Positions 2,197-27,073 of a DNA stretch of 64,000 nucleotides are shown here, one piece after another. The notes under the pieces were generated by a model, which was not told the DNA's origin, did no database searches, and was given only the letters and a program-made list of their open reading frames with translations. Positions within the stretch are counted from its first letter, which is position 1. Each line of letters starts with the position of its first letter. This DNA comes from an uncultured bacterium (GTDB lineage Bacteria > Pseudomonadota > Alphaproteobacteria > Rs-D84), in NCBI GenBank assembly GCA_950096895.1, contig CATNBF010000003.1, positions 3,801 to 67,800 on the forward strand, written 5' to 3'. The position numbers and the translations under genes were made by a program.

Positions 2197-3069
2197 CTAT
2201 TTTCTGACCGTATTACATGCCAATTCCATGTATTTACACATCAACACCGCCGATGCCCGTTCGGCGGCATAACCATCTGCACACTGATGCGGCATATTAG
2301 TGCTGCACACCTGCTCTACACAACGATCGCGCCCTTTGGTACCTTGACAATCACTTTGTACCACCGCCCATTCTTCGGTGCGTTTTTTCTGATACGATGC
2401 CGCAATTTGGTTCAAAACCGTTTCGGCATTCTGGATCGCAGTATCACGATTGGCCAATAATGTCGTCCGAATCCCTTGCATAAATTCATCGCAACCCGTC
2501 GCATCCGACACCGCGCATTCCGACAGATTTCGATCAAATACCACCCCATCGACACACCCGGCATAGTTGCCCCCACAACGTTTTTCCTGAATAATACATG
2601 CCTGCATTTGTGTTTCACACGTGGCCTGGTCTTTAACAACCTTGGCCGCCACGGCCAATTGGCTATATTGTGCCGCCACGCCCGCCGCCGTACATGATTG
2701 CGATATCAACTTGTCATAATTATCCGCCACATCATCTGCCGTACACGCCGTTAATTTGGCCAAACACTGTGTCTGGGCCCATGCATAGCGCGTCACAGGA
2801 TCCGTCGGCGCGTTTTTTAATTCTTTGTCTGATATGGTATAATTTGATGATTGTCCCACAGACACACTGCGCATCCCCCCCTTGGTCGGTGGCGTACCCG
2901 CATCGGGCGTTCCACAATATTGACACCGGGCGGATGGATTGCTGCCTATATTAATGGCACACACAGAATCCAAGCAGCGTGTCAAATTCGCCCGCGAACA
3001 TGTCGCCGCCCCCACAGAACCGGTCGCCATTATCCCCAAGGCTATAAAAATCACAGGTTTTATATTCAT
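2197..3069 (-). CDS. secreted cysteine-rich protein, paralog family member P0b (290 aa)
   Basis: Signal peptide MNIKPVIFIALGIMATGSVGAA. Cys-rich (about 28 Cys), including a loosely family-like N-terminal CSRANLTRCLDSVC block (C-x7-C-x4-C, without the CMDxFC core). 22-bp gap to the downstream P0, suggesting an operon. Confidence 0.7.
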   Translation of the reverse strand: MNIKPVIFIALGIMATGSVGAATCSRANLTRCLDSVCAINIGSNPSARCQYCGTPDAGTPPTKGGMRSVSVGQSSNYTISDKELKNAPTDPVTRYAWAQTQCLAKLTACTADDVADNYDKLISQSCTAAGVAAQYSQLAVAAKVVKDQATCETQMQACIIQEKRCGGNYAGCVDGVVFDRNLSECAVSDATGCDEFMQGIRTTLLANRDTAIQNAETVLNQIAASYQKKRTEEWAVVQSDCQGTKGRDRCVEQVCSTNMPHQCADGYAAERASAVLMCKYMELACNTVRK

Positions 3070-3084
3070 TCTCTCTTATCCGCA

Positions 3085-3113
3085 ACTATATCAAATATCA
3101 ACACCTAACGCAA
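3085..3113 (-). promoter_or_regulatory. putative sigma70 promoter for P0b (TTGCGT-17-TATAGT with TG extended -10)
   Basis: Minus-strand reading TTGCGTtaggtgttgatatttgaTATAGT, 9-15 nt upstream of the P0b ATG (3069). The -10 is preceded by TGa, as in the homologous cassettes at 23623 and 27074. Confidence 0.35.
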
Positions 3114-3144
3114 AGGAAAAACATTTCTTTATTTAACTTTTTTA

Positions 3145-3174
3145 TTGACAAATTTATATTTTTGTTTATATTAT
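3145..3174 (+). promoter_or_regulatory. putative promoter TTGACAAATTT...-17-ATATTA/TATTAT for gene 3202-3768
   Basis: TTGACA at 3145-3150 and an A/T -10 at 3168-3174. The same TTGACAAATTT core and flanks recur upstream of the genes at 23715 and 27160. Confidence 0.4.
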
Positions 3175-3201
3175 ATACTAAATAAACCCAGGATATTTAA
3201 C

Positions 3202-3768
3202 ATGACACGCAATATAAACAACACACAATTACCAGACATTGATCGCCCCAGCACGGCCCAGAATATAACCCAAGGCGCACGTCATTTTTTTGATTTGCTG
3301 GGCGGCATTTTGGCCAGTCGGATTGCCTTGCTGACCTATGCGGGGGTGATTATTTACCTGTTCGCGACACAATTCAAGGGATGCCGCGCATCGGACAATT
3401 CAGATAAATCGGATAAATTGGATCAAAACGTGGAATCGCCCACCCAGACAACATTAACCCCATCAGAAATTGATGATGATCGCGCCTATTGGATGCAAAT
3501 GTTTGATGCGGCCCGTCTGCGTGCAGATTCTTTACAGCAAGAATTGGATATCGCCACATCAAATCTATTGGATTGCCAGGCTGAAAAAATCGCCCCCATG
3601 CCAAAGCCAAAGCCGCGGCGCGTAACACCAGCCCAAAAAAAACCGGCACCACGGCCAACCGCGCCTGCAAAAACAGTAATGTCATCGGTCCCAACACCGG
3701 CCCAGCCTGCGCCAGCAGATACAATCAAGATTTATATTAAACGCACACGAACTGTTCGTTGGTATTAA
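3202..3768 (+). CDS. hypothetical single-pass membrane protein with coiled-coil and Pro-rich C-terminus
   Basis: Start moved from the ORF-track 3145 to ATG 3202 because 3145 lies inside the -35 hexamer. AGGA RBS at 3190-3193. TM helix ILASRIALLTYAGVIIYLFA. PKPKPRRVTPAQKKPAPRPTAPAK tail. Architecture resembles the gene at 27160. Confidence 0.5.
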   Translation: MTRNINNTQLPDIDRPSTAQNITQGARHFFDLLGGILASRIALLTYAGVIIYLFATQFKGCRASDNSDKSDKLDQNVESPTQTTLTPSEIDDDRAYWMQMFDAARLRADSLQQELDIATSNLLDCQAEKIAPMPKPKPRRVTPAQKKPAPRPTAPAKTVMSSVPTPAQPAPADTIKIYIKRTRTVRWY

Positions 3769-3772
3769 ACCA

Positions 3773-3797
3773 ATCCCGCAAATGCGGGATTTTTTAT
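3773..3797 (+). terminator. rho-independent terminator (ATCCCGC-aaat-GCGGGAT + T-tract)
   Basis: Perfect 7-bp stem followed by TTTTTTATT, immediately after the stop at 3766-3768. Confidence 0.6.
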
Positions 3798-3927
3798 TAG
3801 TCCACAGATCACATCAAAAAAATAAGCGGCGCAAAAATTCTTTTTATAAATATTTTCTGGACATATAAAAATGCTTTATGTTAAGATTTATTATATATGG
3901 TATATATTAAGTAGAGAGAATACATCC

Positions 3928-6900
3928 ATGAAACGCATAAAAGTTTTATTCGCGGCCTTGATTATGTTGCCCATGGCGGCATTCGGGGCCAGTGATTTTA
4001 CCGTGGCGGCCCAATTATTGGCGGCGGCAAAAAATGCCGATATTCAACAGGTGCAAATCCTGATCAATAATGGCGCAGATGTCAATTATGTGGATAGCAC
4101 GGGCCTATCCTTGGTATGTACGGCATTGATGAATAATGACTTGCGGGCGGCCCAAATTCTGCAGATGTATGGCGCAGATGCATCAAAATGTGATCGCCAG
4201 ATTAAAAAATATAACAACAACAATCGCCCCGTTGAAAATAGCGGGGGGCTGTTTAGCGGCCTGTCGTCAACCCAAACAATTGCATTGGCGGCGGCGGGGG
4301 CCGCCGTTGTCGTTGGGGGGCTGCTGCTGCTGACGGATGTGTTTGATCCAGGTAATGACAACAATAATCCAAGTGGCGGTGGTTCACGCCCAGGGGGCGA
4401 TCCAGATCCGATTGTGCCCATTGCCAAGGAAAAATTCACCCTGCCCTATGGGCCGGCAATGCCGGACAAGCAATCGGAATTGGACGATTACATCAACAAT
4501 CTGAATGTGTATAGTCCATCGATTGATAATATTTATTCCCGGAATTTTAAGTTGATGACGAACGGGACAACGCAAAATCCTGCTCAAAATTACCTGTTGA
4601 TGATGCATGGATATTCACCACTGGCCCGTGGATATTTGGGGGCGCGGACATTACGCTATGAATCTAATGCGCCGGTACCGAATTCTGTGTTGGGAAAAAT
4701 TAATATCAAAGGCGAAATTGTTGGCGGTGGACGCCCGGTTAATGTCGCCTTGGTAACAGCAAACGGGATTAATGCCACGCCAAAGCCGGCCGGTGCCATC
4801 AGTGCCGAAAAAAATTCCTTGGACGATAAATTATTGGCCTGGACCAGTATCAGTGGTAATCAGCTTAATCTGGCCCCCGAAATCGGTAATTTATCCAGTA
4901 AATATTTCAACAACAAAATCATTCTGGGTGGTGACGGTGCAGAATTAACGAATTCTTATACGGTCGAAGACGGCGATTTAGTGGGGGCATTTGACTTAAC
5001 CGGATTTGGCACAGCGATCAATAATGCAAATGCATCGAATTTGGATAATCAATTGGCCAAGATCTTGGGCGGAAACCCCAGTGGTTACGCCAATGCCGAT
5101 TACATCGGCTTTATTCCCAACGGTCAAATGACCATCTTTCGTTCGGGCGATGGCACGGGTATGATTGACGTGGCCGCGGCGGATGCGATCAATGGAACCT
5201 ATACCGGCCCAGGGAATAAACCAGAAACCATCACATTTAATGGGAAAACATACACGCTGGTTCATACGGGGACAACATTTGTTGCCACAGAAAACGTTGC
5301 CACGGGCGAAACCCCAACGGTCTTGAATGGATATATGGGCGCAAACGGTATGATGTATATGGCCTCTGTTAATGGGTCAAATACCATTGATATGGCCTTT
5401 AACCTGGCAACTGCGGGGATTATGACGCAAAAGTTAAAACGGGGTGAAATTGATTACATGAATTATACCGCCTTGTTGCGTGCCAAGACATTATCCACAG
5501 ACTTGGCCGGTGGTCGTTCACGCGTGGGTGTTATTGCCAATGGCAATGTTATCGGTAAATTGCACAGTCGCGATGCCGCCACCATCGACACGATTTTATC
5601 GGGGGCATCAAACAATTATCAAACATCTTTCTTGAATCTGGTCAATGAATATTATCAAAATCCCAATGCAGATCACAGTGGCACATCCTATACATCCCCA
5701 TCTGATGCCGCCCAGGCATTCTTTGGCGGCATTTGGTCTGCGGATTCAACACCATTGACCATCTTTTCCACCGGGGCATTTGAAACGGATCAGAATTATT
5801 CTGGCCCAACATTAACCGCATCTTTTGAAAATGCCGCCCCATTGGTGTTTGGTAATAAATTATCCCATTTGTTTGCATCTGTGGTGGCGGTTGGCCTGAC
5901 GGGATCGGGTACCAATGACCAATCAAATGTGTCTGGGTATTCAACATCAAATAAAATTGCCATATCCCAATGGCGCGATATGAATGGAACGCCATCCGAC
6001 CCAGATGATGATAAATACTACAAGGCCCGTATTTGTGGGGTTGCTGGGACCGGAACCGGGGCAATTGACCCGTGGTGCTTTGCAGCGGCGGGAATTACCG
6101 ATGAAATGGCGGTATCATCGATGGCCGGTGCGGCGGGCGCATTGCGATCGGCGTTTGATTACATGAACACAGACCAGATTTTTGTGTTGATGGCATTGAC
6201 AGCAGATGGTCCCTTTTTGGCCACAACAACCAATGGAACCGCAATGACGCGTGATGATTTGATCGCCCATTTACAGTCGATGTACCTGTTGCCCAATGAA
6301 TACCAGGCGGCAGTAACCAACGGAACAAAAACATATTTGGATGCATTCCGCGAAGTCTTTGGTTATGGTCTGATTAATTTGGAACGCGCCACAAAACCCA
6401 ACACCAAGATTTATTTCTATGACGGATCGGCCAACCGAATTGTATCGGCCAATGGAAATGCCTATTGGCGCGCCGCCAGCAATACGGTATTTCGGGCATC
6501 TTCGGCGTTTGCACCGCGTACCGCCACAATCAGTGCACCCTTCTTTGATATCCTGGAAAGTGTAGATGGCGATATGTCCATGCCACGTATCTGGCAGAAC
6601 GAATTTGCCATCGGCACCACCGATGCCCGCGGATTATATATGGGCGACGTATTGGGGGAAATGCGGGTCCGTGATGATCAAAACCGTATTGCCCGAACAC
6701 AAATCGGTAATATGGAATTTGCCATTGGCATGTCTGATCGACGGGGCGATGATAACCTAAATGGGTTGGATACAATGCGGCTGGATTACGCCCATGGGAA
6801 CGTACACCTGGGGGCCGGGTTCCAGCGTAATTTCACCGATGGGGCGGCGCGTTTTGATGACCGAACAAATCCTGTCTTGAACCTGGCATCAAATGTCTTG

Positions 6901-7644
6901 ACATCAGATGCGGCATATAATTATGGCAATTGGACATTTGGGGCACGGGCATTTTCGGGTGCGATCACAGACGAAGGCCTGTTGGAAAACGATCCAACCG
7001 TGGCGGCCAACTTTGAACCGGGCCAATTGGGCCTGGCCCATGGGGGACAAATCAGTGTATCGCACACGCGTGACAATTTGCGTTTAGACCTGATGACTGG
7101 TGTGTTACGTGAATCGAATACCATTTTGGGGGCCCAGACCGGCGGATTGTTAAGCCTGGGCGGCGGCGATACCATGTACATTAACGCGACGGCGCAATAT
7201 GATCTGGGGTCGGATCTCACCCTGTATGCGCGATCAACATTTGCCCGTACAACTGGCGATGCCAATGGGGATTTTATCATGGGGCTTAGCTCTATTGACT
7301 CAAATTCATTTGCCATCGGCGCAGATGTTGGCCCGGTGACATTAACACTGGCCCGCCCATTGGGGGTAACACGTGGTCATATGCAATATGCCCATGCCGA
7401 ATATGACGTTGTTCAAAACGCCGACGGCAAATATGAATTGAATGTTGTTGATACGCATGTTGCAGATCTTAACCTAAGCCCGCGTCACCGCGAACTGCGT
7501 CTGATGGCGGAATATCGCCGCCCACTGGGGAAATTTACCGATGGAGCCTTTGGAATGATATACCGCATTCATCCCAACAATACAGATGAATTCGGAAATG
7601 AATCAATCTTTATGATGAAATTTAGCCATCGCGTCGGCATCTAA
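3928..7644 (+). CDS. large (about 1238 aa) exported surface protein: signal peptide, ankyrin-repeat N-terminus, degenerate subtilase-like region, beta-rich C-terminal domain (possible autotransporter/OM barrel)
   Basis: Start chosen at ATG 3928 (MKRIKVLFAALIMLPMAAFGA signal peptide, GAGAGA RBS). Ankyrin-like repeat AAKNADIQQVQILINNGADVNYVDSTGLSLVCTALMNNDLRAAQILQMYGADAS. Hydrophobic segment TIALAAAGAAVVVGGLLLL. Subtilase-like C-terminal signature FGYGLINLERA, but the Ser motif is degenerate (SSMAGAAGAL). Last ~450 aa show an alternating hydrophobic beta pattern. Confidence 0.65.
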   Translation: MKRIKVLFAALIMLPMAAFGASDFTVAAQLLAAAKNADIQQVQILINNGADVNYVDSTGLSLVCTALMNNDLRAAQILQMYGADASKCDRQIKKYNNNNRPVENSGGLFSGLSSTQTIALAAAGAAVVVGGLLLLTDVFDPGNDNNNPSGGGSRPGGDPDPIVPIAKEKFTLPYGPAMPDKQSELDDYINNLNVYSPSIDNIYSRNFKLMTNGTTQNPAQNYLLMMHGYSPLARGYLGARTLRYESNAPVPNSVLGKINIKGEIVGGGRPVNVALVTANGINATPKPAGAISAEKNSLDDKLLAWTSISGNQLNLAPEIGNLSSKYFNNKIILGGDGAELTNSYTVEDGDLVGAFDLTGFGTAINNANASNLDNQLAKILGGNPSGYANADYIGFIPNGQMTIFRSGDGTGMIDVAAADAINGTYTGPGNKPETITFNGKTYTLVHTGTTFVATENVATGETPTVLNGYMGANGMMYMASVNGSNTIDMAFNLATAGIMTQKLKRGEIDYMNYTALLRAKTLSTDLAGGRSRVGVIANGNVIGKLHSRDAATIDTILSGASNNYQTSFLNLVNEYYQNPNADHSGTSYTSPSDAAQAFFGGIWSADSTPLTIFSTGAFETDQNYSGPTLTASFENAAPLVFGNKLSHLFASVVAVGLTGSGTNDQSNVSGYSTSNKIAISQWRDMNGTPSDPDDDKYYKARICGVAGTGTGAIDPWCFAAAGITDEMAVSSMAGAAGALRSAFDYMNTDQIFVLMALTADGPFLATTTNGTAMTRDDLIAHLQSMYLLPNEYQAAVTNGTKTYLDAFREVFGYGLINLERATKPNTKIYFYDGSANRIVSANGNAYWRAASNTVFRASSAFAPRTATISAPFFDILESVDGDMSMPRIWQNEFAIGTTDARGLYMGDVLGEMRVRDDQNRIARTQIGNMEFAIGMSDRRGDDNLNGLDTMRLDYAHGNVHLGAGFQRNFTDGAARFDDRTNPVLNLASNVLTSDAAYNYGNWTFGARAFSGAITDEGLLENDPTVAANFEPGQLGLAHGGQISVSHTRDNLRLDLMTGVLRESNTILGAQTGGLLSLGGGDTMYINATAQYDLGSDLTLYARSTFARTTGDANGDFIMGLSSIDSNSFAIGADVGPVTLTLARPLGVTRGHMQYAHAEYDVVQNADGKYELNVVDTHVADLNLSPRHRELRLMAEYRRPLGKFTDGAFGMIYRIHPNNTDEFGNESIFMMKFSHRVGI

Positions 7645-7751
7645 ATCCCCAAAATACGCCAAAGTATCCGATCCAAACCCGCCAGCTTCGGCGGGTTAAA
7701 ATATTGACATTTTTTATTTTTAGTGTTATTTTAGATATAAAATTAAAACCC

Positions 7752-8261
7752 ATGCAAAAAATCAAGATTCATTTTCCCCGTCTGTTTAATGACGTCACGT
7801 CCCGGTGTCTGATTGGCGAAACATTCTCGCATACGATTTTTTATAATGTCCAGACCGGTCATTGGAATTGCCGCACATACGCCACGCAACCATTAACCAA
7901 TCAATCGATCACCACAAAACAAGTCCATCGTGCAATTGAAAAACTGGAATCCTTGAAATGGATGACCCACCACCGTGTGATGGCGGTTTTGGGAATGGTG
8001 GTGGATGATACTGCCTATACCGGGTGGGCCCAAATCACCCCAAACGCATCATATACGCAAAATGGCCATACATTTATTGGTAATATATTAATCCAAGACA
8101 CACGCAATAATGTGATAACCATGGGCCCACCCATTTGCGTACATAAATATTCATCGTCCCAAATGGCGGTTATGCGTGGCATGGGGGATTTTCTGTATTA
8201 TTTAACAGAAAACAGTGCATTCCGCAGAAGTTTGCAATCAAGCCAAATGAGCATGCGATAA
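7752..8261 (+). CDS. hypothetical protein (170 aa)
   Basis: Start moved to ATG 7752, downstream of a TTGACA at 7704-7709. No recognisable domain. Confidence 0.4.
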   Translation: MQKIKIHFPRLFNDVTSRCLIGETFSHTIFYNVQTGHWNCRTYATQPLTNQSITTKQVHRAIEKLESLKWMTHHRVMAVLGMVVDDTAYTGWAQITPNASYTQNGHTFIGNILIQDTRNNVITMGPPICVHKYSSSQMAVMRGMGDFLYYLTENSAFRRSLQSSQMSMR

Positions 8262-8899: not shown

Positions 8900-11407
8900 C
8901 TACATCGGAATGTCTTCACAAATCGGATCTCTGGTTTCCACATCACATGTTGTATTCTTTTTGCGGAACCAATTTCCCCCTTTGATCTTGCAACTCTGGT
9001 CTGTGATGACGGTACAGACATGGCAATTTCTGGTTTCACGGTTAAAGATCGACGTTACTTCCTTGTTCATGCCGCTGCCGTACTTGCTGGTAAAGGATGA
9101 TTGCCCCATTCCCCCAGAAACCAGATCTTCTCTGTCCAGACCTTCGCCGACTTCATAACTGATGGCATATGGCGGGGCCAACGGTGTATCCACCCCGGTC
9201 AATCCACCACCATCAGAACCGGTCATGGCAATTTTCTGACACATATATTGGGCAATGTCTGCGGATGCGTTGCGCGTTGCCTCTGCAATTTCATGATTGA
9301 ATTTTTCATTATAATTATCCTGGGCCTTGCGCAAGGCGGCAATCGCAATCTGCATCTTGGTCTGGTTTAACAGATTGGGAAAGCGTGCCGATGTCATGTT
9401 ATTTTGAACTTTTCTGCCGCGATCATCCGTCTTGACGCCTGTAATTTGATCCAGATTGCGTCCTGTGATACAGAACTGGATCTGGGGATCTTGGGCAATC
9501 ATTTCAATGGTGCGGTTGATCGTTCCCGCAATGTTGTTCAATTCTTCTTCGATTGCCGATACGATCCCAGTCATATTTTCAACCGTTGAATTGCGCGAGA
9601 TAATTTCATCAATATATCCTTGAACCCCCAATTGCCCAGGCCCCAACAAGACCGGTTCCCCATTGACATTATCATAAACCGTGCCGGCGGCATCGCCCAT
9701 CTTGATACTGCCAAACGAAATCATACCCGTAACACGATATTTATCCCCATCTTTTTGGGAACGCAAAGAGTGTGTCCCGATATCATTATCTGCGGCAAAG
9801 CGGTTACAATCATCCGTACTGCCACAAATTTCAAGCATTTTATCATCAACCAGCTTTTGACACTGGGCCAATGCCGCATTATCAATATTCAGATACAGCC
9901 CCATTAACATTGAATCTAAATCATCCATTGAAAAATTCGGATTGGTCTGCTTGCACACCACCAACTTGTCTATCGGGCAAATATCGTGGATATATTCAAA
10001 ATCCATACCGATACAGTTCTGGAAATCTTTACCGCATCTGTTTTCATCGGTAATGCAATCTTTGACTTCTTGGGTACAGGCATCAACCCGCATCGCGGCC
10101 AATTTATCTGTCACATATCCCCAGATTTGTGGTTCCATCCGTTCGCATTTATCAATTTCAAGTTTACAAAAACTGCGCACCATATCTGGCCGTGCCAAAC
10201 AGGCATCCATGCTATCGACATTTTTGTTGGCAATATTATCACGACAGGCATTGCGGATACAGTCAGAGATATCTACCAAACAAGACTGACGCATTTTTGA
10301 TTCTGCGGCCAATTCCGCAGATTTAATAGTGGGTGCAACATCACGCAGGAATTTGGGCCACACTTCGTTACGTACGGCCATACAACTGTCTAATATCCCT
10401 TCACAAATATCACGCTTGGCCTGTAAACGATCCATGGTCGATGTAGTGATATCAAACGTCTCTATGGTTTCAACCTTTTCGCCTGCGACACTTTTGGCGG
10501 CATTATTCTGCATGTTTTCAGATGCAATAATCGATACACAATTTGACCAATCTGACCCACAGGTATCTTCTGTGGTCATACATTCCTTGAAGGCGACCAT
10601 ACATTCGCCCAGGTTCAGCTTGTTTGCATTATCAAAACTGTTCTTTAATGCTTCACGAACCGCGGCATCGGCATTTGCCATGGCCAGATCGGCGGCATTA
10701 CGTTGGTCTTCGACATAATTTTCAAATTGTTTGCAATCGGCAACAATTTGTCTGGCATACACCTGGCGCAGCAATTGAACATCCCTGTCACATGTTTCTG
10801 GAATGCGTTCAATACAAATCTGTTCTAACAAAGAAAATAATTCTGATCCTTTTTTTGTGGCGATTAAATCCATCACATCTTCGTCATCGTCATCATAAAT
10901 GCTTTTATTAAACAAGGCATCCAGTTTTTCCCGGCGTTCCTGGGCCCGTTGGGCCTGGGTCTTGCTTTCTTGGGCGATTAATTCGGCGGCCTGGTCAACT
11001 TCGATCACATTGCCATTTTCGTCATAGCGACGTTTTCCATTAAAGATAATATCTGCCTTGGCCCCGGCATTGATTTTTTCAACCTCTATATTCTTGATCC
11101 TGTCGGCTTCGTCCAGTTTTTGGCGTATTGCAACCAATTCTTTTTCGAACTTTTCATTATCATTACTGCAAACGCAACTGCCCTTGTTTGATACGTCATC
11201 CAACAAGCAGAATTGATCCATACATCCATAATAGGCATCATAACAGGCCTGATCATAAAGGCCGGATACCGGCACCCGTTCACGGATACCGGTTCCAGAT
11301 TGCATCACAGATCTTTGTGATTTGGCCTTGGACGTCGCCGCCCAGGTGGCCCCACCGTCAATCAATGACACCAATACCAGTAAAGAACATATGAACCGCA
11401 TTTTCAT
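8900..11407 (-). CDS. secreted cysteine-rich protein, paralog family member P1 (835 aa)
   Basis: Signal peptide MKMRFICSLLVLVSLIDGGATWA. N-terminal motif CYDAYYGCMDQFCLLDD...CVCS. Multiple Cys blocks colinear with P4 and P2 (for example EIDKCERMEPQIWGYVTDKLAAMRVDACTQEVKDCITDENRCGKDFQNC). C-terminus RNCHVC...GGNWFRKK...CEDIPM. Confidence 0.75.
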   Translation of the reverse strand: MKMRFICSLLVLVSLIDGGATWAATSKAKSQRSVMQSGTGIRERVPVSGLYDQACYDAYYGCMDQFCLLDDVSNKGSCVCSNDNEKFEKELVAIRQKLDEADRIKNIEVEKINAGAKADIIFNGKRRYDENGNVIEVDQAAELIAQESKTQAQRAQERREKLDALFNKSIYDDDDEDVMDLIATKKGSELFSLLEQICIERIPETCDRDVQLLRQVYARQIVADCKQFENYVEDQRNAADLAMANADAAVREALKNSFDNANKLNLGECMVAFKECMTTEDTCGSDWSNCVSIIASENMQNNAAKSVAGEKVETIETFDITTSTMDRLQAKRDICEGILDSCMAVRNEVWPKFLRDVAPTIKSAELAAESKMRQSCLVDISDCIRNACRDNIANKNVDSMDACLARPDMVRSFCKLEIDKCERMEPQIWGYVTDKLAAMRVDACTQEVKDCITDENRCGKDFQNCIGMDFEYIHDICPIDKLVVCKQTNPNFSMDDLDSMLMGLYLNIDNAALAQCQKLVDDKMLEICGSTDDCNRFAADNDIGTHSLRSQKDGDKYRVTGMISFGSIKMGDAAGTVYDNVNGEPVLLGPGQLGVQGYIDEIISRNSTVENMTGIVSAIEEELNNIAGTINRTIEMIAQDPQIQFCITGRNLDQITGVKTDDRGRKVQNNMTSARFPNLLNQTKMQIAIAALRKAQDNYNEKFNHEIAEATRNASADIAQYMCQKIAMTGSDGGGLTGVDTPLAPPYAISYEVGEGLDREDLVSGGMGQSSFTSKYGSGMNKEVTSIFNRETRNCHVCTVITDQSCKIKGGNWFRKKNTTCDVETRDPICEDIPM

Positions 11408-11436: not shown

Positions 11437-13638
11437 CTACATATTAATATCTTCACAAGATTCTATTTCTTGGCAATATTCTTCTGTGCCGCTGGCACTG
11501 CGTCCCGCAAACAGACCACCAACCGCACCAACTACGCCACCAATTGCCGTACCCCATCCCGGTGATACCGTGGTCCCCATTGATGCCCCCGCGGCCAATC
11601 CGCCGGCCAAACCACGCAATCCACCGGCACCTTTGCTGATCCCGCCGGTTTCGCATACCTGTTGCATGCGGCAAACGTGACAATTACGTAATGCGGGTTC
11701 GAAATGCACGCTGCGGATATAAGAATAGTTCTTTTTACCCATCTTTTCGAACTGTTTAGGATCTTCTGGTTTATACGCATTTTTACAGTTTTGTTCCGCC
11801 GCGGCTAAATCTTGCTTGCGCGATAATTCAGCCATCTTGGTTTCCAATTCACGCATCGCCCGATTTTCGGCATTAATTTCTGCAATGAATTTTGCAGTAT
11901 TAAAGACATTGTCACCCAGACTATTTTTATTTTTTCTGCCGCGCTTATCACCCGATGTACTGTCGCTGCATGCGGCAACCGTTTTATCGCTTTGGAATTG
12001 TTCAAAAAATTCATCTACGGCTTTTTTTGAATTTTCACGCACCTTTACACGCAGTGCGGCAATATCTTCTTCATCTTTTGGCATTTCACTTAATGCCATA
12101 ACCGTATCATCCGACGGCAAACAAGACATATCTGTCCCACAGGCCCGGCCCAGCTGCTCGCTGAAATAATTCAAGCATCCTTGTAACATCTGATAATCCA
12201 TCTGTAATAATGCGGCCGATACAATAACATCATATTGTGTTTCACCCTTGCACGATGGGAACATGCTCTGGGGACACATGGCCACGATATCTGCGGTCTT
12301 TTTACCCATGCATTCGGGCGCATCATAATTAACCCCACATTTATCTTGCAGGCATTTATCCACATCATTTTCACAGAATTTCAAACGTAAAAAGCCCAAC
12401 TTGTCCCCAATAACGTCTTTGATTCCTGGGATTAATTGATCACATTCGCCAATGACCGGGCAAACACCTGCCGCAACATTCACATCGGTCAAACATGCCG
12501 AATCCGTACTGGTCGAGCAGCTAACCTCTAAACAATCTTGAATTCGCGCCAGACATGTTGCCCGTTGGTTTCTATCGGCATATTTGGCGGCATCGGCCAG
12601 AATCATTTTGGATTCTTCGGCCCAATTCTGCAGCACATAATCCCGCGTTGCCGTACATTGATCCAAAATCTGTTCACAGGCATCCGCACGACGCGCCAAC
12701 AATTTTGCATCTAAACAATTTTCAAAATTTGCCCCACATCCGCCCTTGTCTGCGATACATGCACGGTACGCCAGCAAGCATTCCCCACTGTTGTACTTGT
12801 TCGTTGAATCCAGCATTTCCAACCGGGCGGCACGGACAGCGGCCTCTGCGGTGCGCAAATTCTGATTAACGTTATATTTTTCATCGGTTAAATAGGCACT
12901 GAACGTCTTACAATCGGCGACAATTTGACGTGCATAAAGCATTTCTTCCATATCTGCATCATCACCACACGCCGCCAAGCGATTCGCACAATATTCGGAC
13001 GCCATCGCGTACAAATTATCCCCTAAATCATCATCCTGGTCCAGTTCAGTCCCCGACGAAACGTTCAACCATGCATTAAAATCAATATTGGACATGCGGC
13101 TGCTTTTTTTTGCGGCCTCGCTCTCGCCAAAAACCAGGCGGCGTTCACGCGTTCCTAATTTTTCTTTTTCGACCCCTTCAAGGAATAGCACATCGGCTTT
13201 TTCTTGAATATCTTGGATTTCTTTGATCAATTCTTTGGACTTGTTAATATTATCACTGCACGCGCAACGATAGCCTTCGGATTCATCCAATAAACAAAAT
13301 TCATCCATACATTGCCGATAGGCATCACGGCACCCACCCATCATCGGAACCGCGTTTGTCGCCGTTGCACCCGTCCCAGATTCACCATCGGCCGCGGCCG
13401 CCGTTGTTGTAACCGCCCCAGAATTCGGCGTCAATGTTAATCCGGTGGATGTGGTAATTACACCCGACGCCGCACCTGTTGTTGTTGAATTCCCGGTCCC
13501 CGTCCCCAGGTTTGTTGACACCGTTGGGGCCCGTGACGCCGGGGCACGGGACATTCCCACACGCGCATCCCCACGGGATGCCCCCCAAACAGTCATTGGA
13601 AATAAACAGGTCACAACCAGTAAATACTTTAATTTCAT
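11437..13638 (-). CDS. secreted cysteine-rich protein, paralog family member P2 (733 aa)
   Basis: Signal peptide. S/T/G/A-rich linker. Motif GGCRDAYRQCMDEFCLLDESEGYRCACS. Blocks colinear with P1 and P4 (CPVIGECDQLIPGIKDVIGDKLGFLRLKFCENDVDKCLQDKCG). Gly-rich segment then CEDINM end. 29-bp gap to P1. Confidence 0.75.
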   Translation of the reverse strand: MKLKYLLVVTCLFPMTVWGASRGDARVGMSRAPASRAPTVSTNLGTGTGNSTTTGAASGVITTSTGLTLTPNSGAVTTTAAAADGESGTGATATNAVPMMGGCRDAYRQCMDEFCLLDESEGYRCACSDNINKSKELIKEIQDIQEKADVLFLEGVEKEKLGTRERRLVFGESEAAKKSSRMSNIDFNAWLNVSSGTELDQDDDLGDNLYAMASEYCANRLAACGDDADMEEMLYARQIVADCKTFSAYLTDEKYNVNQNLRTAEAAVRAARLEMLDSTNKYNSGECLLAYRACIADKGGCGANFENCLDAKLLARRADACEQILDQCTATRDYVLQNWAEESKMILADAAKYADRNQRATCLARIQDCLEVSCSTSTDSACLTDVNVAAGVCPVIGECDQLIPGIKDVIGDKLGFLRLKFCENDVDKCLQDKCGVNYDAPECMGKKTADIVAMCPQSMFPSCKGETQYDVIVSAALLQMDYQMLQGCLNYFSEQLGRACGTDMSCLPSDDTVMALSEMPKDEEDIAALRVKVRENSKKAVDEFFEQFQSDKTVAACSDSTSGDKRGRKNKNSLGDNVFNTAKFIAEINAENRAMRELETKMAELSRKQDLAAAEQNCKNAYKPEDPKQFEKMGKKNYSYIRSVHFEPALRNCHVCRMQQVCETGGISKGAGGLRGLAGGLAAGASMGTTVSPGWGTAIGGVVGAVGGLFAGRSASGTEEYCQEIESCEDINM

Positions 13639-13780
13639 ATAAACCCACCTACATATTCTTTTTCAAATAATTTTATCAAATATCCCCCCACGATGCAAGT
13701 CGATAAAAAATTCTTGCTTTTTTTACATTAAGGCAATAATATAAATTTTATAATTTACAGCTAATTCACAGGTGATATGT

Positions 13781-15118: not shown

Positions 15119-17716
15119 TTACATATTACCTTTACCCGCATTCGGATCTTGACAATAGCCCCAGCGAACACTGGCCCCTGTTTCAGAATAAAACAACTGA
15201 AATAATTCACCAACTGGTTCCGTAGTGTTGGGTGTGTCACCCGCCGCCGGGGTTGCCGCTTTGGACGTATTGCTGGTGGTATCTTCTTGGTATGGCAAAT
15301 TAACCCACCGTCCGCCCAAACGTTCACATTCCGCGGCCAGTTCTTTGGACATTTCTGCCTGGATTCCGGCCATCACCACATTCACATCTTGCAACACAAC
15401 AGTCGGCAAGACGTCAACCCCACTCTGGGTATATGTGGGACGGATGCATACCTGTAACGCATACCGCACCAGTTTTTGATACACACTGCCGATATATTGA
15501 TTGGTCGTACCACAGTCCGGCCGCATTGTCCCCGCAGTAACACATTCACCACCGTTGTCGTTATCTTTATTATATTCAGCCCAAGGTTGCACCCCACCCG
15601 GACAATTACATTTACCAGGACATGGAACACACATATTACCCTTTTTCGGGGTATTGTCCGGCTTAAAAAATGCGCCATCGTCAAGCTTCTTACTATACCC
15701 CCCTTCATCATACGCCAAATAATAGCCCGATTTACATTGGTAATAAATACGATCCGCATCGCAGATATAGGGGTTGGGATCAACCGTCTCGGTCGCGTTT
15801 GGATCTTGGTATGATTCTGCTGATAAAATAGAATTACATCCCTTGATGACCGACATCTGCTGCTCGCCCGGGGAATAGGTACGACATGCATATGGGTAAT
15901 GATGCAATGTATCATTACTGGGGACTGCGCACAAATCTTTGGCAAATTCTTCCAGTGTTTCTTTACAATTTTTGGCAATCTTTTGATCGGTAATTCCCGA
16001 CATTGTTGTCGCCAGCAATGCCATACCACCCAATCCACCACCGTACAGATTGCTGCACGCGTCCAATTTTACCTTGCACATTTCTTCGGACAATTCCATT
16101 CGTGCCCCAAGTAAGGCCTGTTTTCGGACATTACTAAAATCTTTCAACTGATTGCTTTGTTCATCATAACACTGATTCACAACACTTAAACACTCATCCT
16201 TGACCTGGCGAACACGTTGATGCTGACCTTGATAAATTTCAGTGATGGCCTGGCGCAAAAACTCGTCCCAAACCTGGTCTGCAACATCACGACATGAATC
16301 TAAACTTTTTTCTGCAAAAGATTTTTTACGCTGTAACTCTGTCACCAAGGATAAATTATCTTCGTTGGTCAACACATCACCGGCCAAAGACAATTGCGTT
16401 TCCAGTTGATAAAAATCAGTACTGTATATCGGTTCACCGGTTTCACGATTCAAATATAAGCCCGTAATATCTAAACAGTGGACATAATTCTCGCCACATG
16501 CCATGTTGCCCGTAATATCTGTGCGCACATTGGCAATACAATCGTTAATAGATGACGAATTGTGGGTGTTATAATTTTCCAAACGGGCCTGGTTCATTTC
16601 CCGTTCGGTGGCACGGACGTTCCCAGACGCTTCGATTGTTTGTTTATCCAATGCATTTGCCAATGTTGTACAGTCATTTTCAATATACATCCCATATGCC
16701 GAAACCACCATGTTAAATGTTGACGTTGGCTGACAAATTTCTTTAACCAAATCGGCACATTGTGCATGAACCGCATTATACAACGGTTCGCCGGTTAAAT
16801 TGGCCAATTCTGCCCCGGCGGCCAAATCTGTTGTCGACCAAATCGCATTTATATCGCCTGCAATGTCCAACTGGCCTTGGGTGTCCAAAGATTTCTTTTT
16901 GGTTTTATTCAAAACATCACTGATCCCGTCCAAGGCCGCCGCATTGGCCGATTGGTCCTTGGCCCCGGCCAGTGTTTCTTCACCTGCCGTTCCGCTTAAC
17001 ATGGCCTTTACCTCGGCTGCACTCTTGGTGATAACATCTATATTCAAATCCTTGAAATCTTGCAATTGTTCGCCGGTCTGTTCCAGAACGCGTTGATGGT
17101 TAATAACATCTTCCAGTCGGGCCGAACAGACGCATCGCCGATAATTTTCATTCTGTTTGGCACAGAATTGATCCATACACGTAAAATACGCGTCACGACA
17201 TGCGTTATATCCCGCCCCAAATGTATTGGTGCTGCTGGCGGTATCTGATGTGGCGGCGCGGGCAATCCGCCCACCCCCCGCGGTGCTGGTGGTGGCACGG
17301 GCACTGCGTGCAATGCCCGATTGCACCATTACCCCAGAACGCGCCGCACTGCGTCCCTGGGATACCGTACTAATCGCACTGCGTGCCGATGACCGCGCAC
17401 TAACCGGGGATGTCACTATGTTTGTGCTGGCCGACCGATTGGGACGCGAAACAACCGCACTGGGGGTTAATGCGCTGCGTCCCGATGAAACCACCCCGCC
17501 CCCAGATCGCGATGATACCACCGGTGTGACCACGGCCGACCGCGCACCCGACACCGTCGTGGTCGACCGTGCCGCCGTGTCTGATGTATTTGATGAACGC
17601 GTCGCTGTATTAGTGGTTGCCCCAGACCGCGTTGCGGTATTGCCACTGCGTATCGCGGCGTGCGCAACACCGATACACATCAAACCGCATACAAAAAAAG
17701 GCAGTATTCTTCTCAT
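15119..17716 (-). CDS. secreted cysteine-rich protein, paralog family member P3 (865 aa)
   Basis: Signal peptide. About 150-aa linker of tandem x-x-R-S units (ATRSGATTNTATRSSNTSDTAARS...). Family motif YNACRDAYFTCMDQFCAKQNENYRRCVCS. The C-terminal region carries GCC2/GCC3-like Cys repeats (CKSGYYLAYDEGGY...CVPCPGKCNCPGG). Ends ...GKGNM. Confidence 0.75.
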   Translation of the reverse strand: MRRILPFFVCGLMCIGVAHAAIRSGNTATRSGATTNTATRSSNTSDTAARSTTTVSGARSAVVTPVVSSRSGGGVVSSGRSALTPSAVVSRPNRSASTNIVTSPVSARSSARSAISTVSQGRSAARSGVMVQSGIARSARATTSTAGGGRIARAATSDTASSTNTFGAGYNACRDAYFTCMDQFCAKQNENYRRCVCSARLEDVINHQRVLEQTGEQLQDFKDLNIDVITKSAAEVKAMLSGTAGEETLAGAKDQSANAAALDGISDVLNKTKKKSLDTQGQLDIAGDINAIWSTTDLAAGAELANLTGEPLYNAVHAQCADLVKEICQPTSTFNMVVSAYGMYIENDCTTLANALDKQTIEASGNVRATEREMNQARLENYNTHNSSSINDCIANVRTDITGNMACGENYVHCLDITGLYLNRETGEPIYSTDFYQLETQLSLAGDVLTNEDNLSLVTELQRKKSFAEKSLDSCRDVADQVWDEFLRQAITEIYQGQHQRVRQVKDECLSVVNQCYDEQSNQLKDFSNVRKQALLGARMELSEEMCKVKLDACSNLYGGGLGGMALLATTMSGITDQKIAKNCKETLEEFAKDLCAVPSNDTLHHYPYACRTYSPGEQQMSVIKGCNSILSAESYQDPNATETVDPNPYICDADRIYYQCKSGYYLAYDEGGYSKKLDDGAFFKPDNTPKKGNMCVPCPGKCNCPGGVQPWAEYNKDNDNGGECVTAGTMRPDCGTTNQYIGSVYQKLVRYALQVCIRPTYTQSGVDVLPTVVLQDVNVVMAGIQAEMSKELAAECERLGGRWVNLPYQEDTTSNTSKAATPAAGDTPNTTEPVGELFQLFYSETGASVRWGYCQDPNAGKGNM

Positions 17717-17812: not shown

Positions 17813-17850
17813 AAAAAAAATCCCGCAATTTGCGGGAAATTTTTTTATTT
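17813..17850. terminator. bidirectional rho-independent terminator after rplQ (A-tract, TCCCGC-aatt-GCGGGA, T-tract)
   Basis: AAAAAAAATCCCGCAATTTGCGGGAAATTTTTTTATTT overlapping the rplQ stop. Marks the end of the alpha operon. Confidence 0.65.
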
Positions 17851-18396
17851 GCCAGTGGCGCGGCGTCTTACCGCAACTTCTTTTTTGGCACCGGTCGCTT
17901 TGGCCGCCTTGGTCGCTTCTTTGGCAACTTTGGTCGACGGGGCGCGTGGCGCTTTTTCTGCCGGGGTGGTTGCCGGGGCTTGATCCGCCGCCGCATCCGT
18001 TGCCGCCGGTTTTACAACCTTTTTCGCACTTTCGTCACGATCAACCAATTCAATGATCGCCATCGGTGCCGCATCCCCATACCGGAACCCAGCCTTTAAT
18101 ACGCGGGTATAACCACCCGGACGCTTGACATAACGGGGCCCCAAAACAGTAAACAGTTTTTTCACCGTTGCATCCGATCCATTCCCCAGTTCCGATGCCG
18201 TCAAGCGACGATTGGCCACAGTGTCAACCTTGGCCCGTGTAATCAGTTTTTCGACCACACCGCGCAGGTCTTTGGCCTTGGGCAATGTTGTCTTGATCTG
18301 TTCTTTTTCAATTAAATTTTTCGCCAAGCCGATAAATAACGCCTTGCGTGCATTGGTATCGCGATTAAATGTGCGACCTGCTTTTGCGTGTCTCAT
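17845..18396 (-). CDS. rplQ: 50S ribosomal protein L17 with C-terminal Ala/Lys/Pro-rich basic extension
   Basis: [56 protein letters not shown] is the L17 core. The last ~60 aa are a histone-H1-like tail. Confidence 0.88.
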
Positions 18397-18798
18397 GATT
18401 ACTCCTTTTTATTACTTTCTGCCCCGGGATCCGGGGATTTTCACAAGATGGCACCCTAAAAAAACTTACTTTTTTCAGAAATGCACCGCGTTGATTTTAT
18501 ACAATTTTCCCCAAAAAGCAAGGAAAAAGTCCATTCCCCACATAGGCGGGGAAAATAAGAAATTAAATTATGTGCGACAAATGATGCCACAGAATTTAAT
18601 AAAAATTGTCAGAATGTGCCGAATGGCGATTTTAACGGTGGCGTGGTGTAATTACCCACATCAAGCCAACAAAACACCATATGACACGTTCTGGTAAGAA
18701 ATTAAATTTTATGAGATGATTGGAAACGGTTGCCGGTTCGTAGTGTAGTCGACCTACATGAGAACCAGCAACCGTGACAAGCGTCCATAAAATTTAAT

Positions 18799-19827
18799 TT
18801 ATTTGTAGGGGTCTTCGTACTTCTTGGCCAATTCCGCGATATTTTCTGGCGGCCAACCCGGTACTTCCATCCCCAGGCCCAGCCCCATGGCTTCTAATTG
18901 AACTTTGATTTCGTTCAAAGACTTGCGGCCAAAGTTCGGCGTTTTTAACATATCGGCTTCAGTCTTTTGAACCAATTCGCCCAACCAGTTAATTTTGTCA
19001 TTTTTCAGACAGTTATTGGCGCGAACCGACAATTCCAGTTCATCAACATGCTTTAACAATTTCGGGTCGAACGGCAACGCATCTTTGGCTTTTTCTTCTT
19101 CGGCCGGGGCATTGATTTGCGCCGGATCTTCAAAGTTAATAAAGACAACCAATTGGTCGGTCAAGATACGCGCGGCATATGCAATGGCATCTTCGGGCGA
19201 TACAGAACCATTTGTTTTTACCGTCAATTCTAATTTATCGTAATCTGTTGATTGTCCAACGCGGGTCGCGGTAACATCGCTGGCCACGTTCAAAATCGGC
19301 GAAAAGATTGAATCCACCGGAATAACACCCAACGGCAACCCATCGGCATGCGCCGACGCCGGAACATAGCCACGCCCCGTAGATAATGTGATTTCCATAT
19401 CCAGGTTCGCCCCTTTGTCCAGGGTGCAAATTTCTACGTCTTTGTTCATTACTTCGACACCGCCAGACGTTTCGATCATGCCTGCGGTAACGACCGCCGG
19501 TCCTTTGACCTTGATCGTGGCTTTATGTTGACCTTCGGTTAGGGCCTTGAAATAAACACCTTTTAGGTTCAAGATGATATCCGTCACATCTTCGCGAATG
19601 CCGGCCAGACTTGAAAATTCATGCTGAACCCCATCGATCTTGATAGAAATTGGGGCACATCCCTGTAACGAAGACAACAGAACACGACGCAACGCGGTTC
19701 CCAATGTCAACCCAAAACCCTTTTCCAGCGGATCTGCAATTAATGTGGCAATGTTCGGATTATGTTCATCAACCTTGATTGTCAATTTCTTTGGCTTAAT
19801 CAAAGTCATCCAGTTTTTTTCAATCAT
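18799..19827 (-). CDS. rpoA: DNA-directed RNA polymerase alpha subunit
   Basis: [15 protein letters not shown]...[48 protein letters not shown] closely matches alphaproteobacterial RpoA. Full alpha-CTD present. Confidence 0.93.
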
Positions 19828-19887
19828 AAAAGTTTCCTTTTTTGGCTTAGTTTATTATTTTCACCATTTAGGCGTGGGAATTTTATA

Positions 19888-20427
19888 TCAGAAATCCCCC
19901 AAAGTCAATTGTTTTATCGTGTCGCAGGGATTTTCAAAGACAATCTCCCGTCCCCCCGCCGCACACCAATCGGCAATATTACCCGCCCGATCATCAATCA
20001 ATAAATCATTTGATGTGGGATGAATCAAATCTTCTTTGGCACCACGGACAACAATAACATGCGTATCGTCAAAATAATGCAGCATATGACGCGCAATCCA
20101 TGCGCGTTTTTCCCGGTCGATAAAATCAACATACGCATCGGACCCAACAAAATTTTTGGCCCCCGGCACCTTGGTCAAGACGTACAGTTCGCCGCGCTGG
20201 GCCGCCGTACGCAATAAGTCATCAATACCCGACATAACCGGCAAATCACGCCAGAAATGTGGCCGCTGCTCAATCATGCGCCACCGGGCCCGCTTGGCCG
20301 CGCGACCAGCATCGTCCATTTGTTTGGTCTGAAGATTTAAGTCAACCGACACCGGTGGCAAATCAACTGTTCCCTGATAAAAATCTGCCAAAACACCATC
20401 CATATCAAAAAATATTCTCATTGACAT
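19888..20427 (-). CDS. HAD-superfamily 5'(3')-deoxyribonucleotidase-like (NT5C-type) hydrolase
   Basis: N-terminal IFFDMDGVLADF is HAD motif I (DxDGVL). AAGGAG RBS. Located between rpsK and rpoA, where no gene is normally found. Confidence 0.55.
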   Translation of the reverse strand: MSMRIFFDMDGVLADFYQGTVDLPPVSVDLNLQTKQMDDAGRAAKRARWRMIEQRPHFWRDLPVMSGIDDLLRTAAQRGELYVLTKVPGAKNFVGSDAYVDFIDREKRAWIARHMLHYFDDTHVIVVRGAKEDLIHPTSNDLLIDDRAGNIADWCAAGGREIVFENPCDTIKQLTLGDF

Positions 20428-20701
20428 AGCCTGTCCACTCCTTTTTTTGCATTAAATAAACATTGAAAATATGGTATAAATGAAACGAAAAAGTAAGATA
20501 AATTCAATTGATGTTATATCACGTACGAACTTGTTGTGCAATCCAAATGTTTACCCTTTTGCGAACAATCCGATAAATAATAATAAATCCATATTGAACC
20601 TCAGATCGTGCCACGGGCCATACCATCGCACGGGCGATCACGTTTTCATAAAACGAGGCGAAAAAATACGTATATTATGGATCTGGGGGCCCGGATCATA
20701 A

Positions 20702-20731
20702 CAAAAAAATCCCGCCGGGGCGGGATTTTTC
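20702..20731 (-). terminator. rho-independent terminator downstream of P4 (AAAAAAATCCCGCC-gg-GGCGGGATTTTT)
   Basis: GC stem flanked by an A-tract and a T-tract, immediately 3' of the P4 stop (20732-20734). Confidence 0.6.
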
Positions 20732-23611: not shown

Positions 23612-23622
23612 TTATTTTTGAC

Positions 23623-23633
23623 ATTTTATCACA
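23623..23633 (-). promoter_or_regulatory. putative extended -10 promoter element (TGTGATAAAAT) for P4
   Basis: Minus-strand TGTGATAAAAT lies 12 nt upstream of the P4 ATG. The homologous cassettes at 27074-27084 and 3085-3093 read TGTGATATAAT and TGATATAGT. Confidence 0.35.
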
Positions 23634-23679
23634 TTTCAATAATTAAAGAAAATACTTTTTTACAATTTCATAATACATG

Positions 23680-23707
23680 TTGACAAATTTTATTTTTGAA
23701 TTACAAT
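23680..23707 (+). promoter_or_regulatory. putative promoter TTGACAAATTT-16-TACAAT (possibly leaderless) for gene 23715
   Basis: TTGACA 23680-23685 and TACAAT 23702-23707. ATG at 23715 sits at about the predicted TSS. About 80 bp of flanking sequence is homologous to 27048-27159. Confidence 0.4.
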
Positions 23708-23714
23708 TTAAGGT

Positions 23715-24527
23715 ATGAAACAGTCACCAAGACATCATTTCTATCGAACCGCACCGGCATATGTTATGACGAACGAAGACCTGCGTTGGGTCAACACAAT
23801 TGTCAACCCCCATGCCCAGCGGGTTTTAACCGTCGCGGCCAGCGGGGATCATCCCTTGTTCTATCAACTATTCGGGGCCACGCACGTTGACACATTTGAC
23901 ATTTCTTATTGCGCAAAATTAATCACAGATATCAAATGCGCCGCCATTCGTTCATTGGATTTATCACAATATTCACAATTGATATTCAATTTATTCAATG
24001 CCCCATGCGTCACCGAATTACCCCATATGACCGATACAATTATGCCGCAGCTGGGTTCACTGGCCCAAAAATTTATAAAAAAATACGATCGTTCTTATAT
24101 TTTTTCAAACGGTATTCAACCGGCATTATATTATAAAAACTTTCTGCCGACCCCGAATGAATACCAGAAATTGCAACAGATGAATATTAATTCTTTTCAT
24201 TTTATCAATACAGATATCCAGCTTTTGCATACACAATGCCCAAACAAATACGACATCATCAATCTATCCAATATCTTTGAATACATTCATGACACCAATA
24301 TCATCAAAGACACACTGTGTCATCTGGGACACCTGTTACACATGGGGGGCAAAATTATTGTCCACCAAACAGAAATATTAACAAACACCCAACAAAATAA
24401 TTATTATCACATCAGCCAGCAATTAGCCCCATGGGCCAGAATGGGCATCTATGTCAAAGATAAAACCAAAGACATATGCCAGCCAACCGCCATCATCTTA
24501 CAAAAAATTAACGAGATTATCCGATGA
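23715..24527 (+). CDS. putative class I SAM-dependent methyltransferase (270 aa)
   Basis: Weak Rossmann-fold MTase motifs: VLTVAASGDHP (motif I-like), VDTFDIS (acidic end of beta-2), YDIINLSNIFEYI (motif II), LLHMGGKIIV (motif III, LKPGG-like). Divergent from P4. Confidence 0.4.
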   Translation: MKQSPRHHFYRTAPAYVMTNEDLRWVNTIVNPHAQRVLTVAASGDHPLFYQLFGATHVDTFDISYCAKLITDIKCAAIRSLDLSQYSQLIFNLFNAPCVTELPHMTDTIMPQLGSLAQKFIKKYDRSYIFSNGIQPALYYKNFLPTPNEYQKLQQMNINSFHFINTDIQLLHTQCPNKYDIINLSNIFEYIHDTNIIKDTLCHLGHLLHMGGKIIVHQTEILTNTQQNNYYHISQQLAPWARMGIYVKDKTKDICQPTAIILQKINEIIR

Positions 24528-25121: not shown

Positions 25122-25127
25122 GTGTCT

Positions 25128-27047: not shown

Positions 27048-27073
27048 AAAATACTCCCTTTACTATCCCTAGT

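Follow-up and report, generated by a model that had tools for sequence, protein, structure and literature searches.

Genes flanking the three divergent gaps

We analyzed a 64-kb stretch of DNA, referred to here as the window, from an uncultured gut alphaproteobacterium of the order Rs-D84. Genes of the window are identical to genes on contig CARNXS010000035.1 of assembly GCA_949032065.1, and the relatives of the host are MAGs named Candidatus Enterousia or "uncultured Alphaproteobacteria". Rs-D84 and Ca. Enterousia are common uncultured gut bacteria in which almost no genes have been characterized, and most Rs-D84 genomes are reduced to <1 Mb (PMC12306168). The window contains ribosomal-protein genes together with a minus-strand set of genes that encode Cys-rich proteins with signal peptides. 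As a preliminary description of this DNA had stated, minus-strand Cys-rich genes diverge from plus-strand partner genes at three gaps, which measure 132, 103 and 112 bp. An Rfam scan of the 64-kb window returned a tRNA as its sole match, which indicates that the three gaps contain no known RNA. The genes and terminators that surround the gaps are listed below.

2197-3069, minus strand: Cys-rich secreted protein of 290 aa with 20 Cys; orphan family with an all-alpha AlphaFold model
3202-3768, plus strand: small protein combining a TM-like hydrophobic segment with a stretch that resembles a coiled coil and a region rich in Pro and Lys
3772-3791: terminator after gene 3202
20732-23611, minus strand: Cys-rich secreted protein of 959 aa; BLASTP shows it to be paralogous to 8900-11407, 11437-13638 and 15119-17716
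23715-25090, plus strand: DUF3419 (SAM-dependent transferase-like) gene and the overlapping orphan ORF 24524-25090
25085-25124: bidirectional terminator
25128-27047, minus strand: Cys-rich secreted protein of 639 aa with Gly-zipper segments; highly conserved and unrelated to the other two
27160-28173, plus strand: protein that begins with two hydrophobic helices, read as TM, and has linkers rich in Pro and, at its C-terminus, a conserved alpha/beta domain

The three Cys-rich proteins 2197-3069, 20732-23611 and 25128-27047 have Cys contents of 6.9, 3.5 and 3.6 %, respectively, and N-termini that resemble signal peptides. BLASTP among the three revealed no significant mutual similarity. Profile alignment with hhalign detected a 48-column Cys module common to the 2197 and 20732 families (E 2e-4), and profile comparison linked the 25128 family to neither of them. 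The 25128 family displays 65 % mean column identity over 10 species and carries two Gly-zipper-like segments (e.g., AAVVGVGGGAVVGAGIGAWAGHGD), which hint at membrane insertion.

Among the three plus-strand partners (3202, 23715 and 27160), no mutual homology was found. Genes 3202 and 27160 are nonetheless analogous, as previously proposed, in that both encode hydrophobic (TM-like) helices and Pro-rich stretches. When the Cys-rich proteins, their partners and other orphan ORFs were compared with Pfam and NCBIfam, matches were limited to DUF3419, ankyrin repeats, BOF, NT5C and the like, and the same two databases revealed no regulator gene or domain among the window genes. Sequence searches of the PDB with 20732-23611 and with the 27160-family profile gave no match. 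The AlphaFold model of the 27160 family reaches pLDDT >90 in its C-terminal domain, and the confident models of the 27160 and 2197 families showed no significant match to the PDB by Foldseek. The families all count as orphans.

Scanning one genome per species with the 27160 protein yielded 80 loci; promoter counts were taken over 79 species. The divergent arrangement of 25128-type and 27160-type genes is kept in 78 of the 80 loci, and the 20732/DUF3419 and 2197/3202 pairs recur in every locus that extends that far. We conjecture from this stable pairing that the paired genes have a common envelope or surface role. The gene after 3202, at 3871-7644, encodes a protein of 1257 aa that has ankyrin repeats and, at its N-terminus, a signal-like segment. 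It is part of the conserved neighborhood, because a protein of similar size occupies the same place in L211-L213.

Plus-strand promoters of the window

The motif TTGACAAATTT occurs exactly three times in the 64 kb, at 3145, 23680 and 27125 and always on the plus strand, where 0.26 occurrences are expected in all, and a count of three was reached by 0 of 100 shuffles. Using a hexamer scan, we found that every copy forms the -35 end of the top sigma-70-like promoter of its region, with 11/12 consensus matches. All three sites have the sigma-70-type arrangement of a -35 element close to TTGACA, a spacer within 16-18 nt and a -10 element of the form TAnnnT. Their features are given below with those of two weaker promoters of the same style.

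3145-3172, plus strand: promoter of gene 3202; TTGACA(AA), 16-nt spacer ending in TTGTT, -10 TATATT
7704-7732, plus strand: weaker same-style promoter TTGACATTTTTTATTTTTAGTGTTATTTT before orphan ORF 7752-8261
23680-23707, plus strand: promoter of DUF3419 gene 23715; TTGACA(AA), 16-nt spacer, -10 TACAAT
27125-27152, plus strand: promoter of gene 27160; TTGACA(AA), 16-nt spacer ending in TTGTT, -10 TATATT
56868-56895, minus strand: weaker same-style promoter TTGACAAATAATATTTTTATGTTAATTT before orphan ORF 56164-56847, which has a hydrophobic N-terminal region

The preliminary description had assembled a common plus-strand core from TTGACAAATTT, TTTTTG and AAAATACTTTTT. The first two parts hold, since TTGACAAATTT is present in all three gaps and TTTTTG lies in the spacers of all three promoters. 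The third part does not, since AAAATACTTTTT is exact in only the second and third gaps (23649 and 27100), and the first gap has no copy of it within 2 mismatches. A two-block PWM matched the window solely at 3144 and 27124, with 24.2 bits each against a null maximum of 13. The 23680 promoter scored <10 bits, with TGAAT adjoining its -10, and is a degenerate member of the set.

At both 23715 and 27160, the -10 element ends 7 nt before the ATG, which places its first T 13 nt before the ATG, and no Shine-Dalgarno sequence is present. This layout suggests that the first transcribed base would be the A of the ATG or one adjoining it. Gene 3202 is arranged differently: its ATG lies 29 nt past the end of the -10, and AGGA is found at 3190-3193, 8 nt before the ATG. 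The predicted start near 3179 would give this transcript a leader of ~23 nt.

Conservation of the plus-strand promoters across species

The 27160 protein has >140 homologues, whose N-termini align at the methionine at 27160 and not at the ATG chosen by the gene caller at 27112; the start codon was fixed by aligning the N-termini of 28 homologues. In the 79 species, the orthologues are preceded by TTGACAAA-N9-TTGTC-TATAAT, 6-9 nt and the ATG, with aTTGACAAA and (a/t)TTGTC as the fuller form of the two conserved blocks in nearly every locus. TTGACAA is present in 79/79 and is followed by an A as eighth base in 78/79, and the T, T, G, T and C ahead of the -10 are kept in 71, 70, 73, 74 and 73 of the 79 species. 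The -10 itself is TATAAT in 50/79, and the spacer measures 16 nt in 63/79. These position counts indicate that the bases flanking the hexamers are as fixed as the hexamers, while spacer positions 3-10 are free (~0.1 bit over the 79 species). The conserved bases after the -35 and before the -10 compose a dyad, GACAA-N10-TTGTC, with arms of 5 bp, in ~70 of the 79 species. The dyad is broken in two distant genomes, L032 and L055, which have TTGAC for TTGTC, and it is weakened in the window, which has TTGTT.

The same alignments bear on the earlier suggestion that the transcripts at 27160 and 23715 are leaderless. The -10 lies 6-9 nt from the ATG in 74 of the 79 species, and its first T precedes the start by 12-15 nt (mode 13). 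A Shine-Dalgarno sequence is absent before the 27160 orthologues, in which the -10 is separated from the ATG by only 6-9 AT-rich bases. The case for a leaderless 27160 mRNA thus has strong comparative support, and for 23715 the leaderless layout is seen in the genome of the window.

We also examined ~0.6 Mb (607 kb) of related loci, taking up to 20 kb around each match, with a regular expression and the two-block PWM, for which a score of at least 20 bits was considered a strong match. Strong matches were found solely at orthologues of 27160, 3202 and 23715. The 3202 orthologue, a small TM/coiled-coil/Pro-Lys-rich protein, was assigned by synteny together with weak but significant similarity. 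The 3202-type promoter occurs with a leader of ~30 nt in 10 other species; in four further species that were reached through the 2197 family, the promoter reads TTGACAAA..TTTGTCTA and is in every case followed by a Shine-Dalgarno leader of 30-40 nt. The DUF3419 orthologues have either TTGACA(A/T)TTT..TTTGTAC-TATATT or the full consensus. Roughly half of them are leaderless in layout, with 7-9 nt from -10 to ATG, and roughly half have a Shine-Dalgarno leader of 20-40 nt, which looks like an evolutionary switch between two modes of translation start. This contrast sets L014, L017, L067, L072, L078 and L081 against L049, L059, L061, L062, L063 and L087, and the DUF3419 gene has the same promoter type in all of them. 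Many species also have additional boxes upstream, with TTAGACA found 19 times against 0.6 expected and TTGACAA 8 times against 0.6 expected, and nearly all of these boxes have the same orientation.

Minus-strand promoters of the Cys-rich genes

The elements assigned to the Cys-rich genes are listed below.

3085-3093, minus strand: TGATATAGT, an extended -10 located 15 nt ahead of the start codon of the Cys-rich operon 2197-3069 / 645-2174
3110-3121: GCAAAGGAAAAA, upstream element of the minus-strand promoter, centered ~25 nt from its -10
13670-13678, minus strand: fourth extended -10, TGATAAAAT, before the Cys-rich operon 11437-13638 / 8900-11407
23623-23633, minus strand: extended -10 TGTGATAAAAT of Cys-rich gene 20732-23611
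23649-23660: AAAATACTTTTT box of the minus-strand promoter, centered at about -36
27074-27084, minus strand: TGTGATATAAT, an extended -10 that precedes the ATG of Cys-rich gene 25128-27047 by 26 nt
27100-27111: AAAATACTTTTT box of the minus-strand promoter, at a distance of 25 nt from its -10

That all three gaps have a minus-strand extended -10 had been proposed before, and we found TGnTAnAnT, with TG at -15/-14, in each of them. The hexamer scan gave no -35 match at these three promoters. Gene 25128-27047 has the Shine-Dalgarno sequence AGGGAG, the complement of 27054-27059. The element recurs in other species: 2197-type orthologues have TGnTATAAT or TGnTATACT in 6/6 scored, with an extended -10 in 4 further species as well, and 20732-type orthologues have TGnTAAAAT in 25/32, mostly 24-25 nt before the ATG. 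Among 25128-type orthologues, TG is present in 50/74 and TATAAT in 49/74, and the -10 lies 25-30 nt from the ATG behind AAGGGGGAG.

The AAAATACTTTTT box has the near-palindromic lineage consensus AAAAAG[C/T][A/G]CTTTTT. In 55 of 57 loci, its center and the minus-strand -10 are 24.5 +/- 1 nt apart, but its distance to the plus-strand -35 ranges over 20-43 nt. Because the spacing is fixed only with respect to the minus-strand -10, the box belongs to the promoter of the Cys-rich gene, and its earlier assignment to the plus-strand promoter picked the wrong one of the two. The variable distance also led us to reject the idea that the box serves the plus-strand promoter as an UP element. In the first gap, GCAAAGGAAAAA occupies the same place and is a different element, which reads (T/G)GCAAAG(T/G)GAAAAA in the orthologous gaps.

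A fourth divergent gap, 13639-13780, in which a Cys-rich operon faces infA, has neither TTGACAAATTT nor a -36 box. It does have TGATAAAAT, which indicates that the plus-strand and minus-strand elements are separable. Taken together, the elements on the two strands support the proposal that the three gaps are bidirectional promoter regions, with plus-strand promoters of one class.

A model for the gaps and its alternatives

Our preferred reading, to which we give a probability of about 0.7, is that the gaps are conserved back-to-back promoters of three old divergent Rs-D84 gene pairs, with leaderless starts and a putative regulator. On the minus strand, the Cys-rich genes would be read from -35-independent extended -10 promoters (TGnTAnAnT) followed by a short Shine-Dalgarno leader, and in two gaps a recognizer of the A5-G-Y-R-C-T5 box near -36 would help these promoters. 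On the plus strand, three unrelated genes would share a sigma-70-type promoter that consists of TTGACAAA, 9 free bases, TTGT(C/T) and the -10. For 27160 and 23715, RpoD holoenzyme would initiate at the A of the ATG or at a base adjoining it, which would yield leaderless mRNAs, and for gene 3202 it would initiate near 3179, with a leader of ~23-30 nt. The extra conserved bases (AA and TTGTC) and the upstream TTAGACA/TTGACAA boxes would make up the operator of a putative regulator that co-controls the three plus-strand genes. The elements, their spacing, their conservation and the stable pairing of the genes are direct observations on which this model builds. Promoter firing, the start sites and the role of the operator are what we infer from them.

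We read the gaps as a lineage-wide cis-regulatory module, probably with a regulator that binds TWGACAA boxes. We keep the regulator putative because the arms of the dyad are short, L032 and L055 have TTGAC, the window has TTGTT, the bare pattern is common in unrelated bacteria and no regulator gene was found in the window.

A possible but unlikely explanation is that these are plain strong sigma-70 promoters, in which AA and TTGTC are contacts of RNA polymerase or sigma or fix the exact start of a leaderless message. A metagenome scan with TTGACAAAN{8,10}TTGTCTA matched at least 120 contigs, mostly unrelated, in which TTGACAAA..TTGTCTA often runs into TATAAT; among the matches listed, the only relatives were L117 and L174. 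The presence of this 15-base pattern in many unrelated metagenomic contigs suggests that the promoter form is perhaps partly that of a generic strong promoter. Plain promoters would also suit L032 and L055, which keep TTGnC though the dyad is broken, and reduced genomes of <1 Mb, which have few regulators (PMC12306168). However, the extra bases are missing from other promoter-like sites of the window, which precede rpsM, rpoA and the rpsL region, and the conserved G is at -15, not at -14 as in a TGn extended -10. Fixing of a leaderless start is further at odds with the 3202-type promoters, which hold the same bases though they are not leaderless, and a plain promoter leaves aside the additional same-orientation boxes upstream.

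Origin of the shared motif

The preliminary description had attributed the likeness of the gaps to segmental duplication of a whole module. It had noted that 23612-23714 and 27048-27159 could be aligned over ~80 bp, and this alignment proved marginal, with a local score of 43 that 3 of 2000 shuffles reach. The best alignment instead joins the plus-promoter halves of 3070-3201 and 27048-27159 (score 65, 0/2000 shuffles). Once the conserved motif is removed, the upstream flanks show no significant likeness (p = 0.08, 0.02 and 0.42). Neither the Cys-rich genes nor the partners resemble one another over their full length by BLASTP and hhalign. Duplication of the whole module is thus largely refuted. 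Each gap is orthologous to the corresponding gap in other species and has its own signature, which indicates that the common motif is an old, selected cis-element.

A narrower version, in which the bidirectional promoter cassette was recently duplicated or converted in this genome, draws on the 3145 and 27125 promoters. These are identical at 26 of 28 positions, including TTGTT and TATATT, which are both minority states across species, and they match at 7 of 9 free spacer positions. Against it stand the flanking genes, which are not homologous, the flanks beyond the motif, which are not significantly alike, and the orthologues of every gap in other species, each with its own signature. Sister genomes speak against it as well: L210 already has TTGTT in its 3202-type promoter, and L009 has AT-only spacers, so the likeness of the two promoters is explained by composition and shared ancestry. 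Given L009 and L210, recent gene conversion between the two promoters is not required. In addition, six other genomes have dissimilar spacers in the two promoters. We regard recent duplication or conversion as very unlikely.

Recognition by an alternative sigma factor, such as one that is RpoH-like and reads TTGACAAA and TTGTCTATAAT, is highly improbable. It would account for conserved bases that reach beyond the canonical hexamers and for a motif confined to a small gene set, but the hexamers and their 16-17 nt spacing are those of canonical sigma-70. To our knowledge, the consensus sequences of alphaproteobacterial RpoH (CTTG..CYTATNT) and of ECF factors do not match the plus-strand promoters, and we know of none among the CIRCE, CtrA, LexA, PhoB and RpoH consensus sequences that fits the motif. 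Chance likeness, which could appeal to the AT-rich, low-complexity gaps and to the marginal 23612/27048 alignment, has next to no probability and is already refuted by the three exact 11-mers against 0.26 expected and by conservation over 79 species though neighboring bases are free.

Comparison with known systems

Leaderless bacterial genes have a -10 box, TANNNT, ~12 nt before the start codon, as described in Deinococcus and Actinobacteria (Zheng et al. 2011, PMC3160421). Genes 27160 and 23715 resemble them in that 13 nt separate the first T of the -10 from the ATG and a Shine-Dalgarno sequence is absent. They differ in that the layout is a property of individual genes, while clear Shine-Dalgarno sequences precede the other genes of the lineage, in a promoter that retains a perfect -35 together with extra conserved bases, and in a DUF3419 gene that alternates between leaderless and Shine-Dalgarno-led forms among species.

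The promoters of the Cys-rich genes and their orthologues resemble extended -10 (TGn) promoters, with TGnTATAAT or TGnTAAAAT and no -35 match. Unlike plain extended -10 promoters, those in two of the three gaps have the near-palindromic A5-G-Y-R-C-T5 box in the place of a -35, and this box is more suggestive of a curved-DNA element or a class II activator site than of a plain extended -10 promoter. Divergent operons of the tetR/tetA or LexA type share with the gaps their back-to-back promoters and, as a candidate feature, an inverted repeat that covers the -35 and abuts the -10 of one of the two. In contrast to those operons, the pairs described here contain no regulator gene, the arms of the putative operator are 5 bp long and 10 bp apart, and the additional boxes are direct rather than inverted repeats.

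Chlamydia has cysteine-rich envelope proteins, OmcA and OmcB, and an analogy may be drawn at the level of the gene products only: here too, a small-genome bacterium has several secreted proteins rich in conserved cysteines. The Pfam, PDB and Foldseek searches described above revealed no sequence or fold similarity, and we treat the analogy as a lead only.

Significance for Rs-D84

The comparative evidence points to a promoter module that is old, selected and Rs-D84-wide and that is not a duplicated cassette. With it, Rs-D84 and Ca. Enterousia gain their first well-supported cis-regulatory module, whose promoter class is kept to the base in ~80 species, and an alphaproteobacterium that otherwise uses Shine-Dalgarno sequences gains a clear candidate for a conserved leaderless gene. 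Three orphan families of Cys-rich secreted proteins are tied to three fixed partners and can be studied as one functional unit. The elements belong to kinds that are already known, and the general principles of transcription are unaffected.

More tentatively, and with considerable doubt, the TWGACAA boxes, namely the -35 box, the inverted box next to the -10 and the additional upstream copies, could be the operator set of a lineage-specific regulator, and the three plus-strand proteins could form an envelope or surface apparatus with the divergently encoded, disulfide-rich secreted proteins. If so, three proteins with membrane or modifying roles, one of them leaderless in ~80 species, would be under the joint control of one regulator, and the surface or envelope apparatus would be peculiar to this uncultured gut order.

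Additional features of the window

The weaker promoters at 7704-7732 (plus strand) and 56868-56895 (minus strand) share a T-rich-spacer style, TTGACA..ATTTTT[A/G]..TA..TT, and a terminator hairpin lies directly ahead of each. ORF 7752-8261, which follows the first of them, weakly resembles ORF 24524-25090 (E 0.004).

The ribosomal-protein genes rpsM-rpsK (30.9-30.0 kb) and rpoA-rplQ (19.8-17.8 kb), which usually form one operon, are ~10 kb apart, and Cys-rich and partner genes lie between them. No rpsD was seen in this part of the window (17845-30896). In the relative L006, rplQ has the Cys-rich cluster on its other side. Between 28195-28998 and rpsK, 975 bp (28999-29973) contain no ORF of at least 80 aa and no Rfam match. 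Two small orphan ORFs of 96 and 100 aa with no Pfam match are located between secY and rplO, at 32330-32924, and thus within the cluster of ribosomal-protein genes. The gene at 58729-59727 encodes phage-integrase N-terminal domains (Arm DNA-binding and central), and the single tRNA of the window, at 55255-55328, lies a few kb from it.
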